64,000 nt of DNA from Somniosus microcephalus (lineage: Eukaryota). Of this stretch, positions 16,483 to 27,809 are shown one piece after another. The position numbers were made by a program, and so were the translations under genes. How positions within the stretch are numbered: the first letter of the stretch is position 1; the number at the start of each line of letters is the position of its first letter. Location of the stretch: positions 21,328,001 through 21,392,000 of the forward strand of contig CM126223.1 of assembly GCA_052327205.1 (NCBI GenBank), in the 5' to 3' direction. The notes under the pieces are model-generated. The model did not search any database and had not been told where the DNA came from. It was given only the letters and a program-made list of their open reading frames with translations.

Positions 16483-17634
16483 TTAAACTTGCTCAATGAG
16501 TCTCTCAGGAGGCTTCACGTGTCTTGAGGATTTTCTGATTGATTGTCCTTGAATCTGAGTTGTTGCCTCAGATGATTGGTTCTCAGCTGTGTGATCAGGT
16601 TGTTCAACAGTATCAGTCTTTTGACCTGCTGTGTGATCAGGTTGTTCAACAGTATCAGTCTTTTGGCCTGCTGTGGCTGGTCCCATGAGAAGATCCTGAT
16701 GATTTCTTCGCAGAACAGCACCCTCATCTGTCTGAATGGTGTATGATCTTGGTTGAACTTCACTCAGGACAGTTCCCTTCTGAGTCCATATGTTTGTTTC
16801 GTCTTTGAACCTTACTTGGTCACCAGTGTGGAGTTCAGGTAGGTTTTGTGTTCCTCTGTCATAGTAGTACTTTTGCTTTTCTTTCTGTTGTTCTTTGAAC
16901 TTCCTCACTTTCTCCCCCTCTTTTGTTTTCAGGAGGTTCTCCGGGATGGGTAGGTTTGACCTTAACAGACGTCCCATAAGGAGTTGGGCTGGTGACATAC
17001 CACACTCGAGCGGCGTTGTGCGGTATACAAGCATGCTCTGGTAGAAGTCAGTTCCACTGTCTTTTGCCTTGTACATCAGTCTTTTCACTGTCTGGACCGA
17101 TTTTTCCACTAGTCCATTGGACTGTGGAAAGTGAGGACTTGACGTTGTGTGGACAAAGTCCCACTCTTTGGCAAAGTGTCGGAAACTTGCATTGTAAAAC
17201 TGGGGTCCGTTGTCTGTGAAGACCTCGCTTGCCACGCCATGTCTGGAGAATATGGCTTTCATACATGTTATCACAGCATCTGCAGTGGTGGTGTACAGTC
17301 TACAAACCTCTGGATACAGGGAGTAATAGTCTGTGACTACAAGATAGTCCTTCCCTTGACATACGAATAGGTCAGCGCCTACCTTCTGGTAAGGTCTGTC
17401 TGGCGCTGGGTGTGGCTTTAGTGGTTCTACCGGATTGCTTGCTCGATATTTCAGGCATATTGTGCAGTTTGACACCTCATTTGTCACATCTTGGTTGATT
17501 CGTGGCCAGTACATCACCTCTCGTGCTCTTTTCTTACACTTTTCGATTCCCAGATGTCCTCCATGGATCCTTTTTAGCATCTCTTTTCTCAGACTCTTTG
17601 GGATAACTATTTTACTTCCTTTGTAGATGATGTC
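16483..17634 (-). CDS. Gypsy A integrase
   Basis: HGGHLG..CTIC zinc finger; GADLF, TDNGPQF, SNGLVEK DDE core; frame joins RNase H across the Gypsy B TSD (VVEDI/IYKGSKIVIP). Confidence 0.9.
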   Translation of the reverse strand, partial: DIIYKGSKIVIPKSLRKEMLKRIHGGHLGIEKCKKRAREVMYWPRINQDVTNEVSNCTICLKYRASNPVEPLKPHPAPDRPYQKVGADLFVCQGKDYLVVTDYYSLYPEVCRLYTTTADAVITCMKAIFSRHGVASEVFTDNGPQFYNASFRHFAKEWDFVHTTSSPHFPQSNGLVEKSVQTVKRLMYKAKDSGTDFYQSMLVYRTTPLECGMSPAQLLMGRLLRSNLPIPENLLKTKEGEKVRKFKEQQKEKQKYYYDRGTQNLPELHTGDQVRFKDETNIWTQKGTVLSEVQPRSYTIQTDEGAVLRRNHQDLLMGPATAGQKTDTVEQPDHTAGQKTDTVEQPDHTAENQSSEATTQIQGQSIRKSSRHVKPPERLIEQV

Positions 17635-20600
17635 TGATGCGCTATCAATTACTCATAAAAGACTGAGAGTTAGAAGAGTAACTAAAGGCTTTTATTAACA
17701 ACAGAATGGAGGTCTGCCTCGCGTGGTCGACCGGTCCAGGATACAAAGGGCTGGGGAGCAGTCACCTTTATACTAGGACCTGTGGGAGGAGTCAGCCGAG
17801 GCATGTCCAGGCATGTACACAGTGGAATACAAACAGGACAAACAGGAATACAAACAGTGGTTTACCACATTCACCCCTTGTTTAAAATTGAGTCTGGCGG
17901 GGTGAAGTGTATTAAAAGTTAGTGTATTGGAGTCTCTCCGGAGGTCTTGTCTGCCGCTGTGATCGGCGTGGCGACGGCAGGGGTAGTGAAGCTTCCGGCG
18001 TCGAGTCCAGCGTAGGCTGTGGCACAGGCGTGTCGTCCTCGTAGATGTCGAGCGGGTCGCGGGGCCCAGGCCTGCCGTCTGCTGGGGCTGGATATCGGAT
18101 CGTGGGGGGGGGTGGTAGTGGGTAGTGGGTTACTGCGGCCCCCGAGGGTGCAAGGTCTCTTATGGAGACTGTGTCCTCCCGCCCGTCCGGGTATGCGATG
18201 TAAGCATACTGGGGGTTGGCGTGGAGGAGGTCGACCCTCTCAACCAGGGGGTCCGTTTTATGGGTCCTCACGTGTCTTCTCAGTAGGACCGGCCCTGGGG
18301 ACGTCAGCCATGGTGGTAGCGATGTCCCCGATGTGGACTTCCTTGGGAAGACAAACATTTTCTCATGAGGGGTGGCGTTAGTGGCAGTGCAGGGCAGTGA
18401 CCGAATAGAGTGGAGCGCATCGGGGAGCACATCCTGCCAGCGGGAGGTTGGAAGGCCCCTAGACTTTAAGGCTAGCAGGACGGCCTTCCAAACTGTCGCA
18501 TTTTCTCTTTCCACCTGTCCGTTCCCCCGGGGGTTGTAACTGGTGGTCCTACTTGTGGCAATACCCCTAGTTAGCAGGTACTGATGGAGTTCGTCGCTCA
18601 TAAACGATGAGCCCCGGTCGCTATGGATATAGCTGGGGAAGCCGAACAGGGTGAAGAGGTTGTTCAGACATTTAATGACCGTGGCACTGGTCATGTCCGG
18701 GCAGGGGAAGGCGAACGGGAAACGGGAGTACTCATCAATAATATTGAGGAAGTACACATTGCGGTCGGAGGAGGGGAGAGGCCCTTTAAAATCAACGCTC
18801 AGGTGCTCGAAGGGGCGAGTGGCTTTTATCAGGTGGGCCCTGTCTGGTCTATAAAAGTGCGGTTTGCACTCAGCGCAGACTTGGCAGTTCCTGGTCATGG
18901 TCCTGACCTCCTCAATAGAGTAAGGCAGGTTGCGGGCCTTGATGAGGTGGAAGAACCTGGTGACCCCCGGGTGGCAGAGGTCATTGTGGAGGGCCCGCAG
19001 TCTATCGATCTGCGCGCTGGCGCAGGTGCCACGCGATAGCGCATCCGGGGGTTCATTTAGCTTCCCGGGCCGGTACAAGATCTCGTAGTTGTAGGTGGAA
19101 AGTTCGATTCTCCACCTCAAGATCTTGTCATTTTTGATTTTGCCCCTCTGCTTGTTGTTAAACATAAAAGCAACTGAACGCTGGTCAGTGAGCAGGGTAA
19201 ATCGTTTTCCGGCCAGGTAGTGCCTCCAATGACGCACAGCCTCCACAATCGCCTGGGCCTCCTTCTCAACAGCGGAGTGTCTGGTCTCCGGGCCTTGGAG
19301 GGTTCGTGAAAAGAAGGCCACGGGTCTCCCCGCCTGATTGAGGGTAGCGGCCAGGGCAAAGTCGGATGCGTCGCTTTCCACCTGGAAGGGGATGGATTCG
19401 TCCACTGCGTGCATGGTGGCTTTGGCAATGTCCTCCTTGATACGGTGGAAGGCTAAGCGGGCCTCTGCCGTCAAGGGAAAAGAGGTGGACTTGATCAGCG
19501 GACGGGCCTTGTCCGCATAGTAGGGGACCCACTGGGCGTAATAGGAGAAAAACCCTAGGCACCTCTTCAGGGCCTTGAGGCAGTGGGGCAGTGGAAGTTC
19601 CATAAGGGGACGCATCCGGTCGGGGTCGGGGCCGATGACTCCGTGTTCCACAACACAGCCAAGGATGGCGAGGCGGTTTGTGCGGAATATGCACTTCTCC
19701 TTGTTATATGTCAGGTTTAGGAGTTGGGTGGTGCGGAGGAATTTTTCGAGGTTTGCGTCATGGTCCTGCAAATCACGGCCGCAGATGGTCACATTGTCCA
19801 GATATGGGAAAGCGGCCTGCAACGCATTTTGATCTACCATCCGGTCCATCTCCCTTTGGAAGACGGAGACCCCGTTGGTGACGCCAAAGGGAACCCTAAG
19901 GAAGTGATAGAGGCAGCCGTTTGCCTCAAAGGCAGTGTACTGGCGGTTCTCAGGGCGGATGGGGAGCTGGTGGTACGCTGATTTCAGGTCAATGGTCGAG
20001 AAGACGCGGTACTGCGCGATCTGGTTGACCATATCAGCTATACGGGGGAGTGGGTAGGCGTCAAGCAGGGTGTAGCGATTTATTGTCTGGCTGTAGTCGA
20101 TGACCAGGCGCTGCTTCTCGCCGGTCTTAACGACCACAACCTGGGCTCGCCAGGGGCTGGTGCTGCCCTCAATAATCCCTTCTTTCAGGAGCTGCTCCAC
20201 TTCGGTTTTAATGAAAACCCTGTCCCCGGCACTGTATCGCCTGCTCTTTGTGGCGATGGGCTTACAGTCGGGGGTGAGGTTAGCAAACAGTGGTGGGGGG
20301 GTGACTCTGAGTGTGGAGAGGTTGCACCTGGTGCGCGGCGGGCAATTTGGAAGCTGCTGGCTGCGGACTGTGAGTGGGGGTAGGGGTCCACCGTACGCCA
20401 TCGTAACACTTTTAAGGTGGCACTGAAAATCTAACCCCAGCAGGACGGCAGCGCAGAGGTCAGGCAGGACCAGAAGTTTAAAATGATCGTACACGGTCCC
20501 GTCTACTACGAGTGTCACCACGCAGTAGCCGCCGATGTCCGCCGACTGGGACTCGGAGGCCATAGAAATCCGCTGTTGCGCAGGCAGGACTGGGAGAGAG

Positions 20601-22009
20601 CAACGCCGCACCGTGTCGGGGTGGATGAAGCTCTCCGTGCTCCCAGAGTCAAAAAGGCAGATTGTATCGTGACCATTTACCTTAATGTCCATTGTGGAAC
20701 TGGCCAGTTGGTGCGGTCTCGCTTGGTCCAGTGTAACGGATGCCAGCGTAGGGGTCGGTGTGTCGCTGCGGGTATCAGATGAGGCGGTGTCGGGGGCCTG
20801 CTGCGTCCCGGCTGTCGTCCAAGATGGCTGCGTCCATGATCCCCATGTGGCTGGAGGCGTCCAAAATGGCTGCTGTACCGGTGATTCGCACATGGCCGGG
20901 GAGGTCCAAGATGGCGGCCCGCATGGCCCACACGCGGCGCTGCTGGGGTTCGGGGTGGCTTTGGCCCTGCAGACGCTAGCGTAGTGTCCCTTCTTCCCGC
21001 AGCCCGAGCAGATCGCGTTTTTCGCCGGGCAGCGCGCTCTGGGGTGTTTTGCCTGGCCACAGAAGTAGCATTTCTGGCCTTGGGGCACTGCAGTCTGGCC
21101 TTGGGACACTGCTGCGGTAGTTGGGCCGTTGTTGGGGTGTGGCTGGGGTGGCACGGCACTATGAGGCGGTCCTACCGTGTCTCAGGCTGTCATTCCCCGC
21201 GGCGTCCACGGTGCAGAGGAGTAGGCATCCATGCCCTGGTAGGCTGCATCCAACGATAGTGCGAGTTCAGAGGCCTTGTTGAGGTCGAGGTTACTCTGCT
21301 CCAACAGTCGCTGTCGGGTGTAATTGGATCTGTGGCCCGCTACAAAAGCGTCCCGGATAAGTTCCTCTGTGTACACGGCGGCTTTTACATCCTTACAACC
21401 ACAGGCCCGGCCAAGCACAGACAGTGCCTGAAGGTATTCCACGGTCGATTCCCCAGGTTGTTGTTTACGACTCCCCAGGAGGTGCCTGGCGTACACTTCG
21501 TTCACTGGGTGCGTGTACTGGTCCTTGAGGAGCTTGATAGCGTCCGCGTACGAGGTCGCGTCTTGGATGACCGAGTACACTCGGTGGTTCACTTTGGAGG
21601 TCAGGACATCCAGTTTGTCCTCGTCCGATTTGATTGCTTCGGAGGCGGTCAGGAATTTTTCGAAACACTTAAGCCAGTGAGTAAACTTGGTGGATGAGTC
21701 CGCCTCCTGATGATCTAAGTCCAGGCATGCTGGTGTGAGGATCTTCTCCATTATAAAAATGTTGTTAATAAAATTGATGCGCTATCAATTACTCATAAAA
21801 GACTGAGAGTTAGAAGAGTAACTAAAGGCTTTTATTAACAACAGAATGGAGGTCTGCCTCGCGTGGTCGACCGGTCCAGGATACAAAGGGCTGGGGAGCA
21901 GTCACCTTTATACTAGGACCTGTGGGAGGAGTCAGCCGAGGCATGTCCAGGCATGTACACAGTGGAATACAAACAGGACAAACAGGAAAACAAACAGTGG
22001 TTTACCACA
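17635..22009 (-). mobile_element. Gypsy/Ty3 LTR retrotransposon B, complete and very young, nested in Gypsy A
   Basis: 235-bp LTRs 17635-17869 and 21775-22009 differing at one base; TSD ATGTC; PPT AAGGGGTGAA. Confidence 0.96.
17912..21751 (-). CDS. Gypsy B gag-pol polyprotein (single frame, one internal TGA at 21182-21184)
   Basis: ORFs 21182..21751 and 17912..21154 are in the same frame; two Cys/His knuckles, FDSGS protease, RT with YLDN, RNase H SDAS/TDQ, HHCC plus DDE integrase. Confidence 0.9.
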
Positions 22010-23880
22010 ATGTCTTCGACCACTGATAGTTCCGCCCTGCAGTTCCAGTACTCTGCCATGTCAGGTGAGCAGTCTTGCTTCATGTTGGGCCATCCATCCA
22101 AGATGCTTTTCCTCAGTCGTCTCAGTGTTTCATCTTTGTTTGCCTCAGTCTTTATGAGCTCCATTTTTGCATCTGCTATGGGCAGTGCACTTGTGATCAT
22201 GTCCACGTAAGCGTTCACTTTTTCATCCATTTTGGTGTTTGCGGGCTCACTTGGGTCAACAGCTCTGGACAACGTGTCTGCTGTATACATCAGCTTACCC
22301 GGTGTGTACGCAACATTCAGTGTATAGCGTTGCAGCCTGATCATCATTCTTTGTATTCTAAGCGGACAGCTATTTAGTGCCTTTTGGAACAATGCAATCA
22401 AGGGCTTATGGTCAGTCTCTACACTGATTGCTTGTCCTGACACAAACTGGTGAAATCTTTCACAGGTGTATGTGATGCTGAGCAGCTCCTTTTCTATTTG
22501 AGCATATCGCGTCTCCGCGTCTGTCATTGAGCGCGATGCATATGCAATAGGTTGCCAGTAGTCATATTTTTGCAGAAGAACGGCACCGAGCCCACTCTGT
22601 GATGCATCTGATGATATCTTGATGGGTCTCGCTGGGTCATAAAACCTCAGAACTGGTTCCTCTGTGAGCAGTTTCTTTAGATCGCACCATGACTTCTCAT
22701 GCTCATGATTCCATTCCCATTCTATGTTCTTTTCAGTTAGTCGTCTCAGTGGCGCCATCTTTTCTGAGAGGTTGGATATGAATTTACCCATGTAGTTGAT
22801 CATTCCATTAAACCTCTGCACGTCCTTTTTGCATTGTGGCTTTGGCATATTCTCAATGGCGGACACCTTTCTGGGATCTGGTCTGATGCCCTCACTGCTA
22901 AGGATATCTCCCACGAATGTCAGTTCTGTCACCCCGAGCTGGCATTTCTCTCTATTCAGCTTCAGGTTTGTTTTCCTTGTTGCTTCCAGCACTTTTTTCA
23001 GTCTCTCGTCATGCTCAGTTCTCGTGGTTCCCCATACTATGATGTCATCCATTGAGGTATCAACTCCCTCCAGGTGCTCATAGATCATATGGATAGTTTT
23101 GTGATACACTTCAGGAGCTGAGGCAACGCCAAATGGTAACCTTAGGAATCTGTATCTGCCAAATGGACTGTTGAACGTGCACAGTCTTGAACTTGCCTTG
23201 TCCAATTTCATCTGCCAAAATCCTGATGATGTATCTAACTTGCTGAAATACTTTGCATTTGCAAACTGTGACATGATTTCCTCACGTGTAGGAAGCTTGA
23301 AGTGCTCTCTCTTTATTGCTCTGTTTAGATCTCTTGGATCCAGGCAAATTCTGAGCTTTCCATTCTTTTTGTCCACAATGACGAGGGAACTCACCCACTC
23401 AGTTGGCTCATCTATCTTCTGAATCACGTTCAGGCTTTCCATCCTGTCCAACTCTGCCTTCAGTTGCTTTTGAAGAGCAAACGGAACTTTTCTGCATGGA
23501 TGTATGACCGTTGGCATACTTTTATCTACTCTGATCGTGTGTTCTCCTGGAAGGCAGCCTAGACCCTTAAATAGGTCATTGTACTCTTTCATGAGTTCAT
23601 CATAGACTGCCTCTCCTTCGCTTTCCACAACAAGGACTCTCTTTACCAGGTTCAGTCTCTCACAGGCTATTAAACCTAGTATGGCTTGCACATCCTTTGG
23701 CACCACGATTAATGCTAGCGTGTGCTCTCTGTCCTTGTGTGTCACTTTGACAATGCATTTTCCTTTCACTGGTATATCAGTACCTGAGTATCCTGTCACT
23801 TTCACTTTTATTCCATGTATCTTTGGTCTGGGTCTAATTTTCTTAAAATCAGTCTCTGATATCACATTAACTTGTGCTCC
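22010..23880 (-). CDS. Gypsy A pol (protease C-half, RT, RNase H)
   Basis: RICLDPRDLN, LPFG, SMDD, SDASQSGLGAVL, ETDHKPL in ORF 21913..23865. Confidence 0.9.
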
Positions 23881-25131: not shown

Positions 25132-25294
25132 TTTTTCACTTCGTTAGCTATTCTTCAAAGGTAAGTAACGATGTTCTCTTTTGGCTTGCTAATATGTGGA
25201 GAGCTGATTTCACTGGGTAGCTTACTTGCCACGACTCCGTTCACTATCTCATCGAGTTGCTAACTTCAGATTTTTCCTTTTCATCTCTTTCAAT

Positions 25295-25308
25295 CACTTC
25301 TGACACCA
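25295..25308 (-). promoter_or_regulatory. tRNA-Leu primer-binding site of Gypsy A
   Basis: TGGTGTCAGAAGTG directly after the 5' LTR, complementary to the vertebrate tRNA-Leu 3' end CACTTCTGACACCA. Confidence 0.85.
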
Positions 25309-25358: not shown

Positions 25359-26078
25359 GGCCTAGAAATTCAGTTGGGCGCGCCAGCCGTTAGCGCCTTA
25401 GGAGTAGATCTCGAGCGCTAGGCGCGATCTGCGCCTCGCCCCAACTTCAGTACACATTTAGCGCCGGCACAAGTCTTAGCGCGCGCTCTGCTGCACGCGC
25501 AGATCATGACGTCATTTCGTCGTGCAACGCCCTTTGTGCGCCCCGAACCGGAACTTCACTCGCGCCGGCCCATTGTGCGCCGGGCGGCCCTAACGACTGT
25601 GAAGTGGAACGGTACACAGCCGATGCGGGCCGCGGGGAGCGCAAATTAAAGGGCCCTCCTGTACTAGAAATGGTATGGCTGGCGAGGAGGAGGACGAGGA
25701 CGAGGAGGAGACTGGTGTGCCGGGAACACATAACAAACTGATGGAGAGAAACCCTCCCCACAACCACAAATACACCAGTGTCGGCCTTTCAAAAAAACAA
25801 ATCCACCCTCCCCCTTTAAGAGCTCACCGGAGCCAGAGTGTCTGCCGTCAATCAGCAGCTCGCCGCACCTGCCCTGCGCCCAACTTCCGGTTTAGCGCCC
25901 CAGCCCGCTGGCTTAACGCCTAAAGAGAGGCGTGCAGCGCCAGTTTTAGCGCTCGAGCAAACTCTTAGGGCGAAGCTAATGAATATCGGAGAAGTGGCCT
26001 CGATTTTGCGCCGGGTGCAAACTTTAGCGGCCGCCCGACTTTACCGCCCCAAAAGTGGCTACAATGAATTTCTAGGCC
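25359..26078. mobile_element. Harbinger-type MITE inside the 5' LTR of Gypsy A
   Basis: Perfect 14-bp TIR GGCCTAGAAATTCA / TGAATTTCTAGGCC; absent from the other LTR; flanks AAG/AAT. Confidence 0.82.
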
Positions 26079-27809
26079 AATGTCTTTTAATCTAAAGTCT
26101 GTTCAACTCAGTTAACAGCATTACAGGAGACACCATCTTAGAGCTCCATCTAAAACGAAACCAAAACTAAACTCTGCCTCTGTCACATGCCCTCTGCTGG
26201 TAAGGCATAAATAATCAAACAGGCAAATACCATCACTATTTGCTGATATCATTACAGAGGGTTTCCCCCGATTCCCATTGACTTCAGTTTTACTAGAGCT
26301 CCTTGATGCCATACTCTGGTCAAATGCTGCCTTGATGTCAAGGGCAGTCACTCTTACCTCACCTCTGGAATTCAGCTCTTTTGTTCATGTTTGGACCAAA
26401 GCTATAATGAAGTCTGGAACCGAGTGGGCCTGGTGGAACCCAAACTGGGCATCAGTGAGCAGGTTGTTGGTGAGTAAGTGCTGCTTGATAGCACTGTCGA
26501 CGATACCTTCCATCACTTTGCTGATGATTGAGAGTAGATTGATGGGGCGGTAATTGGCCGGATTGGATTTGTCCTGTTTTTTGTGGACAGGACATACCTG
26601 AGCAGTTTTCCACATTTTTGGATAGATGCCAGTGTTGTAGCTGTACTTAAATTGCATCACAATTGCCACAAATTTAAACTTTTGTTACAAAAATGAAAAA
26701 AAATCATAAAATCCTGCACTTAAGCAACAGTATTGGTTAAAAATCACCTCCTCCCAGCAGCTCACACTGTTAATTGGGATACTAAATGTTCCAAGCAACA
26801 ATGCCACTTCTACTTCATCCTGCAATCAGCATTTTCTATATTTGTTCAAGATATTGACATAAATGTTGTTCTTTGCAGGTTAGGATAATTGCTGGGGGAA
26901 CAGCAGAGAACTTTACCTTTACAATCAAACAGCCAGCGTCGCAAAGTCCAGTTTAGTAAATGTAGTCACTTTAGCACTGCAAATAGAAAGGATGAACTGC
27001 AAATGCTGGAAATCTGAAACAAAAATCACAAAATACTGCAAATTCAGTCAGCCTCTGGAGAAAAAGGGTTAATTGTTCTGTAGAAGCGAAAATAACTGGT
27101 CTCAGAAGTGAAAAAGGAGTGTGCACACCCACCCATTCCCCTTATTAGATTGAAATAATACCCAAGAACAGTACAATGAAAATTAGTCTTCAAACTTATT
27201 TGGCAATATAGAGATCTAGAAACACAGAAATTCACATCATTTTGAGTTTTCATTGATGCTACTGAAATCTGCAAATCGTAATCTTTCAAATTAATCACTC
27301 TGGAAATTTGAAAGTATCTGTCAATCTTTAATTTTCTCTCATGATCAGCAATTAGCCTCTAGCTGATCTCAGGATTTACAGCAGACTGTGGTTCTAAAGG
27401 GACAAAACACTTAAAACAAACTCTACCTTAGTAGCAGAATAATATTATAACAGTTGTTATAAACCAGCACATCATCTGACATATGCAATGGTATAGGAAA
27501 TTCACTAGTAATAATAAAAATGTTACCTGACTTCGAACCAAAGAAGTTTACAGAACAGATGGAGGCCAATTACCCATCATGTCTGTGCAGGCACATCGCT
27601 GGAGCAATCCAAAACTAATCCCATTGCTCCACTCTCTCCTCAAAACCCTGTATTTTCCTCCACTGCAAATATTTATCCAATTTTTCCTTAAAAGAAGCAA
27701 CGATCTCTGCCGCAACCCCTCCCTGTGGCAAAACATTAAAGAAATTTCTCCTAACCTCTCGCCTCACTTTCCTGTGACAACTTTAAATTGAAGACATGTC
27801 TCCAAATAG

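Follow-up and report, generated by a model that had tools for sequence, protein, structure and literature searches.

How does a Gypsy element begin reverse transcription when nothing resembling a tRNA-binding site follows its 5′ LTR? The question is raised by a 4.4-kb retrotransposon on the minus strand of a 64,000-nt stretch of Somniosus microcephalus DNA (hereafter the window; features of the element are given in window coordinates and lie on the minus strand). Pairwise comparison of the 5′ LTR (21775..22009, 235 bp, TG...CA) with the 3′ LTR (17635..17869), of which it is a direct repeat with one mismatch, yields 234 identical positions out of 235 and marks the element as young. A 5-bp target site duplication (TSD; 22010..22014, second copy 17630-17634) flanks the element, which sits within the pol frame of a second Gypsy. 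The single gag-pol frame (17912..21751) encodes two CCHC motifs, protease (PR), reverse transcriptase (RT) with a YLDN motif, RNase H (RH) and integrase (IN), without a chromodomain; a polypurine-tract-like stretch (17870..17884), similar in relatives, lies upstream of the 3′ LTR. By its TG...CA LTRs, its TSD and the order PR-RT-RH-IN it is a Ty3/gypsy LTR retrotransposon, and the best solved-structure match of its RT is the RT of Ty3 (E 7.5e-47). Among the matches listed, the closest named proteins come from rays and catsharks (74-82% identity), followed by a nematode and a sea anemone.

The window copy carries one in-frame stop in gag-pol, at 21184-21182. Among the genome copies, many others of the window family keep a single frame open over ~1289 codons, for which reason we rejected programmed read-through of a gag/pol stop. 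A first look returned tens of thousands of candidates in the 6.4-Gb genome, a figure that is not a copy count. The Gypsy element that hosts the insertion has a canonical TGG primer site directly 3′ of its LTR end (25293-25308), which we take to be of the tRNA-Leu type; its 5′ LTR is split by a ~720-bp GC-rich, MITE-like insert with terminal inverted repeats (25360-26080).

The original prediction for this locus was that the element has no TGG or tRNA-type primer-binding site after its 5′ LTR, and its coordinates hold when checked on the minus strand. A single A (21774) follows the LTR end, and the next 14 nt, at the primer-binding position (21773-21760), are the perfect complement of an LTR segment ~55 nt upstream (21843-21830, hereafter the arm), which contains AATAAA at 21836-21831. 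Between the arm and the LTR end lies an inner stem-loop (21781..21829; fold −12.3 kcal/mol), and 23 nt separate the LTR end from the gag ATG (21751). Two further elements were found where they had been placed: a TATAAA (21912-21907), a candidate promoter from which a start near 21882 would be expected, and a CTCCATT (21851-21845) complementary to AATGGAG (21752-21746) over the gag AUG. The 161-nt region folds at z = −3.83, with none of 200 shuffles equally stable, and the 14-bp helix is predicted at a pairing probability of 0.97-0.99 under all seven assumed RNA starts.

Copies of the window family retain the helix while changing its letters. Pairing over 14 nt is perfect in 43 of 45 distinct copies and interrupted by one mismatch in the remaining two, and three versions of the helix occur among the 45, changed on both strands at position 13. 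These copies are matches to an extraction pattern in loci L001-L060, where the best-scoring copies were fetched redundantly; they are not a random sample. In RNA reads of a related organism, 21761 and 21842 both show alternative letters that match each other, without phasing.

We then compared related families from the S. microcephalus genome and from marine metagenomes. Of 89 loci, 36 apparently reach the gag start; seven of them, in which no start was located, were set aside, and the remaining 29, together with eight representatives of the S. microcephalus genome, make up 37 scored loci. LTR ends were compared with 3′ LTRs in 17 loci, some of whose 3′ LTRs were truncated or over-extended by the aligner. 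With the arm end and the primer site called by separate motifs and ties broken toward pairing, at least 12 of 13 positions form Watson-Crick pairs in 30 of the 37 loci, and all 13 do so in 26. The other seven comprise two loci at 11, one short contig without a call and four at 4-7, of which one (L110) is a miscall that pairs over 15 nt in a separate helix search. When the strands of 25 distinct helices are cross-paired, the mean falls to 8.8 of 13 and 4% of combinations reach 12. The same contrast is seen in 23 representatives, a well-paired member picked per family or subfamily: each has a complement of 12-17 nt to its own LTR, against a median of 5 across families and a maximum of 9 in 4600 shuffled-LTR trials. 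Between-family complements of at least 12 occur in 6 of 506 comparisons, all among three subfamilies of the window family.

The helix has a sharp outline. Positions 1-12 are Watson-Crick in 23/23 representatives, with two to four pair types at positions 4-9, 11 and 12, and pairing then drops to 22, 14, 11 and 9 of 23 at positions 13, 14, 15 and 16. Its register is constant: the LTR end CA, one spacer base (A in 22 representatives, G in one) and TTT; in 20 of 23, GCC or ACC follows the AAA that closes the arm. The loop between arm and site ranges from 24 to 80 nt in the clade, and the energy of the inner stem varies among relatives from 0 to −13.0 kcal/mol. Covariation of LTR and leader across relatives had been set beforehand as the check on the pairing, and compensatory changes are present both among copies and among families; since the anchor motifs were derived from the same data, the figures express consistency and not an independent probability. 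On comparative sequence grounds, the LTR-leader pairing is a real, selected RNA helix.

Several observations were made along the way. The pair at position 10 (21764:21839) is C:G in 23/23 representatives while its neighbours vary, and is possibly a recognition or cleavage determinant. One host-genome family (L173, L232-L256) has a ~100-nt leader before the AUG, and two of its subfamilies, each with ~13 pairs, have the distal part of the helix shifted relative to one another. One copy of a related family (L204) carries a clean inversion of ~23 nt across the LTR end and primer site. Copies of another related family that share the same short open frame (L179-L184) cluster at 21.7-23.5 Mb of one contig, which suggests segmental duplication. 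Relatives in contigs filed as bacterial MAGs (L143-L148, L141-L142) are most likely carried-over animal DNA, and a scan of viral contigs found no relative.

What would such a helix be for? We consider it likely that these elements, having no tRNA-type primer site, use the arm as their minus-strand primer, the 13-14 nt that follow the 5′ LTR pairing with this segment of the LTR itself. No TGG follows the LTR end in the window or in any of the 36 called loci. Against two isotypes, tRNA-Lys(TTT) and tRNA-Cys(GCA), the longest complement in six host-genome families is 4-7 nt, a bare sample of the host tRNA set, the retrieved tRNAs being mostly one tandem array. The polarity fits priming, as in the antiparallel pairing the 3′ end of the arm faces the LTR end across the one spacer base. 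An RNase H domain is present in the window gag-pol, and cleavage at the arm is predicted. The earlier suggestion of tRNA-independent self-priming is well supported by the covariation and the fixed register; the likeness to cleavage in Tf1 is drawn by analogy.

In Tf1, the RNA's initial 11 bases anneal to the primer site and RNase H cleaves between bases 11 and 12, according to the accessible part of PMC7175516, and a preprint available in part sets priming within a three-duplex structure (bioRxiv 2022.12.06.519325). Applied to the window element, such a pathway would start from the helix, whose fixed register and covariation across copies and families were described above. The RNA would next be cut at the 3′ end of the arm (AAAA|GCC, between 21830 and 21829 by the geometry of the helix), probably by the element's own RNase H, and the cut would free a 3′-OH pointing at the spacer base and U5. 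The RNA probably starts 20-40 nt before the arm, so that the primer would be internal, and its sharp length of 13-14 bp would depend on a second cut or on the extent of primer copy-back, and not on the cap. Finally, the arm would have a second role in the 3′ LTR as its poly(A) signal; masking would be confined to the 5′ LTR, the one copy followed by the primer site, and the 15-30 nt between the cut and the poly(A) site could supply the homology for the first strand transfer. Copy-back of the primer into its site would explain the fast two-sided changes as well. RNA reads of the related organism show no pile-up of read ends at the predicted cut or at any start, a weak observation given the fragmented libraries.

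The position of the RNA start bears directly on this pathway. The original prediction placed the arm downstream of the start, unlike Tf1; TATA spacing and a sushi-like element of the same genome that we used as a control speak for this, RNA reads do so weakly, and the start itself is deduced from them. TATAAA stands 83-86 nt before the predicted cut in three host-genome families and 103 nt before it in a fourth, and one metagenome family has a TATATA 75 nt before the cut. Most other families, including most invertebrate-type ones, have no TATA, and a search across families for a TATA conserved at −30 from the arm found none. Because the four host-genome families with a TATAAA have it ~70-90 nt upstream of the arm, against 34 nt in the sushi-like element, the primer probably lies inside the transcript and not at its 5′ end. 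The RNA data are two stranded runs from one study of a related organism, with reads of 5′, 3′ and solo LTRs pooled and the read strand assumed from library convention and gag asymmetry. The ratio of sense to antisense depth in run X7 is 0.61 at 21872-21887 and climbs to 1.27 at 21848-21855; in run X8 it goes from 0.36-0.40 to 0.62. Together these figures are a weak indication that the excess of sense reads begins near 21864-21871, upstream of the arm. Neither run contains a splice joint or a sharp start or end in the LTR. Gag (21100-21660) is covered mainly by sense reads, at hundreds-fold depth in both runs, and U3 is more antisense than sense.

A start at or just before the arm, either at the A at 21847 or within a TTAG-like motif of the arm, would instead make the element self-prime exactly as Tf1 does, one cut releasing a capped primer of 11-18 nt. 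We regard this sub-case, assessed separately from the internal primer, as unlikely, although it has points in its favour. CTCCATT overlaps an initiator-like YYANWYY match whose A is 21847, and such a match, with its A at −18 from the cut, recurs in four of eight host-genome representatives; T-A-G-T predominates at arm letters 12-9, with the G invariant in 23/23; and a second cut becomes unnecessary. Against it stand the TATA spacing (83-103 nt before the cut; the sushi-like control has its TATA-like box 34 nt upstream of the arm), the weak excess of sense reads upstream of the arm, and the covariation of positions 12-13, which fall outside an 11-nt primer.

In retroviruses, the AAUAAA of the 5′ repeat is held in the stem of a poly(A) hairpin. 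The arm carries AATAAA or ATTAAA in 18 of 23 representatives; the other five end in GTTAAA or TTTAAA, and two of these have a hexamer in the loop. Occlusion of the 5′ LTR poly(A) site is plausible as a side effect of the helix and would follow from its geometry; here, unlike in the retroviral hairpin, the arm pairs with a strand beyond the LTR, at the primer site, and masking could thus reach the 5′ copy only. That the helix does nothing but mask this signal, or serves packaging, while a host RNA fragment or another site provides priming, we judge improbable. The frequency of the hexamer and the invariant AAA end of the arm agree with a masking function. However, masking needs neither a partner fixed one base past the LTR end nor a constant length of 13-14 bp, the five arms that have no canonical hexamer are fully paired all the same, a host primer would have to fit more than 20 different sites, and the missing TGG in all 36 called loci counts against masking with host priming as well.

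It is more doubtful still that priming falls to the arm copy in the 3′ LTR, with the 3′ end of the RNA folding back onto the primer site and the stretch of 40 nt from cap to arm acting as the strand-transfer repeat. Such a route would give a use to a start 40 nt upstream, would explain why the arm ends in a poly(A) hexamer, and would require release on the 5′ side by a cut at 13-14 nt. On the other hand, the local 5′ helix, at its predicted 0.97-0.99, would block the loop-back, the tail downstream of the hexamer would have to be removed, and we found no precedent.

The prediction had also coupled the helix to a translational switch, which finds no support as a feature of the clade: the Watson-Crick run over the AUG exceeds shuffles (p<0.05) in two of 21 loci, and AUG pairing is 0.03 in the sister subfamily. 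In the window, predicted probabilities for the 7-bp AUG helix run from 0.35 to 0.97 with the choice of RNA start, and the helix is absent from the minimum-energy fold of the 161-nt region. That sequestering the gag AUG is the main function of the structure seems scarcely credible: the 7-bp helix of the window family (shuffle p = 0.002), a C-to-T variant that retains a G-U pair and predictions of partial, G-U-rich pairing at the AUG in roughly half of the 21 loci favour it, but no compensatory change is seen, the gag AUG lies 86 nt beyond the helix in one host-genome family, and AUG pairing, besides the low value in the sister subfamily, is near 0 in several others.

If the arm is the primer, does the window element simply belong to the Tf1/sushi group? 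Tf1 and Tf2 of Schizosaccharomyces pombe, Tj1 and sushi are alike with it in having no tRNA site, a primer position complementary to the LTR, an inner stem, a single gag-pol and the order PR-RT-RH-IN. Membership was rejected on three features, namely no chromodomain or Tf2-type SH3, an RT ~30% identical and no third duplex. Searches at E<=0.05 find no Chromo or SH3_Tf2-1 match in the window integrase or those of six relatives, whereas the sushi-like control matches both, and the precomputed domains of the 120 matches listed contain no PF00385. RT identity is 29-30% to three sushi-like RTs (a label that rests on their chromodomain and SH3 matches), 27% to the TGG-primed host Gypsy and 44-80% within the clade. 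A quick RT tree, from which seven of 38 rows shorter than 150 aa were dropped, sets sushi apart on a long branch, with the deep order unresolved and BEL rooted inside the clade; a sister relation is compatible with it. The third duplex of the Tf1 "pretzel", sought as Watson-Crick runs in the 30 nt after the primer site, exceeds shuffles in 0/23 representatives; in the sushi-like control it is 8 bp long (p = 0.04). Since Tf1 depends on this duplex, its absence also counts against the self-priming reading. By the features tested, the window element appears to work like Tf1 but falls outside the Tf1/sushi group.

The control, L257, is itself a chromodomain-bearing sushi-like family of the same genome with an 11-nt self-primer signature (arm at 1623, primer site at 1783), and its TATA-like box 34 nt before the arm together with the third duplex reproduces the Tf1 layout. 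Compared with the Tf1 group, the clade has a helix of 13-14 bp where that group has 11, and its loop is shorter than the 148 nt of the sushi-like element; its arm is probably internal, in place of the first 11 nt of the RNA, and carries the poly(A) hexamer. It also differs by the absence of a third duplex, of a chromodomain and of a Tf2-type SH3, by its two CCHC motifs and by an RT that is mostly YxDN. In the window, this RT motif (within 19082-20341) is YLDN and not YxDD, and YxDN forms account for 94 of 122 motif matches in the 120 listed proteins, young and abundant families included. Replacement of Asp by Asn at this position blocks retroviral RTs and Ty1 transposition, which makes a mobile YxDN clade odd. 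The full-text literature searched yielded no paper joining the YLDN motif to retrotransposons.

A search of the full-text literature, with subscription papers and Repbase lying outside it, returned no description of self-priming in this animal clade. Entries in Repbase may record self-priming in Gypsy families of marine invertebrates or fish, and if so the present case would be less new. The main text of two clade surveys, as far as accessible, makes no mention of the primer site (PMC8556966, PMC6238403), nor do their readable supplements contain a clade motif; the "self-priming" of PMC9873768 concerns PCR, not retroelements. Self-priming has been described for Tf1/sushi, Tcn1 and TAR in the available portions of PMC6317226, PMC4600332 and PMC5341516. 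As excerpted, the first of these likewise predicts it from complementarity of LTR and primer-binding site in plant lineages, Tcn1 (Gypsy) and TAR, Houba and Osr-1 (Copia), and TAR indicates that self-priming is able to evolve outside chromoviruses; of the two, both in plants, Tcn1 is a chromovirus and TAR a Copia element, whereas the window clade is animal and non-chromoviral (PMC6317226). The Skipper elements of dictyostelids are Gypsy elements that likewise have no TGG at the primer site; in the accessible text they carry a polypyrimidine tract without a complementary LTR region and, unlike the window clade, are chromoviruses (PMC5006619).

The clade would be a widespread and compact one, taking in cartilaginous fish, cnidarians, a nematode and many marine invertebrate-type sequences. 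Its self-priming is likely to be of independent origin relative to Tf1/sushi, a point that the quick RT tree does not show. We put forward, tentatively and as a possibility that goes well beyond the priming itself, that a non-chromoviral animal Gypsy clade with a YxDN RT evolved self-priming independently of Tf1/sushi, with a 13-14-nt primer made of the poly(A) signal and excised internally by two cuts, one helix both silencing the 5′ poly(A) site and supplying the primer. What would be new here is that the primer lies within the transcript and that it coincides with the poly(A) signal.

Taken at the level of sequence, this non-chromoviral Gypsy lineage bears a strong signature of self-priming, from which priming itself is deduced, and the covarying helix gives exact, testable positions. 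The missing tRNA primer site explains why annotation based on such sites would miss these elements, and if the reading is true they may also escape control by tRNA fragments. Starting reverse transcription from an internal primer would be a novel route, and would bear on the question, raised in the accessible part of PMC3601003, of whether hairpin priming preceded tRNA priming. tRNA-independent priming among Gypsy elements would then not be limited to chromoviruses, and would span a large animal clade that is abundant in the 6.4-Gb genome of S. microcephalus.
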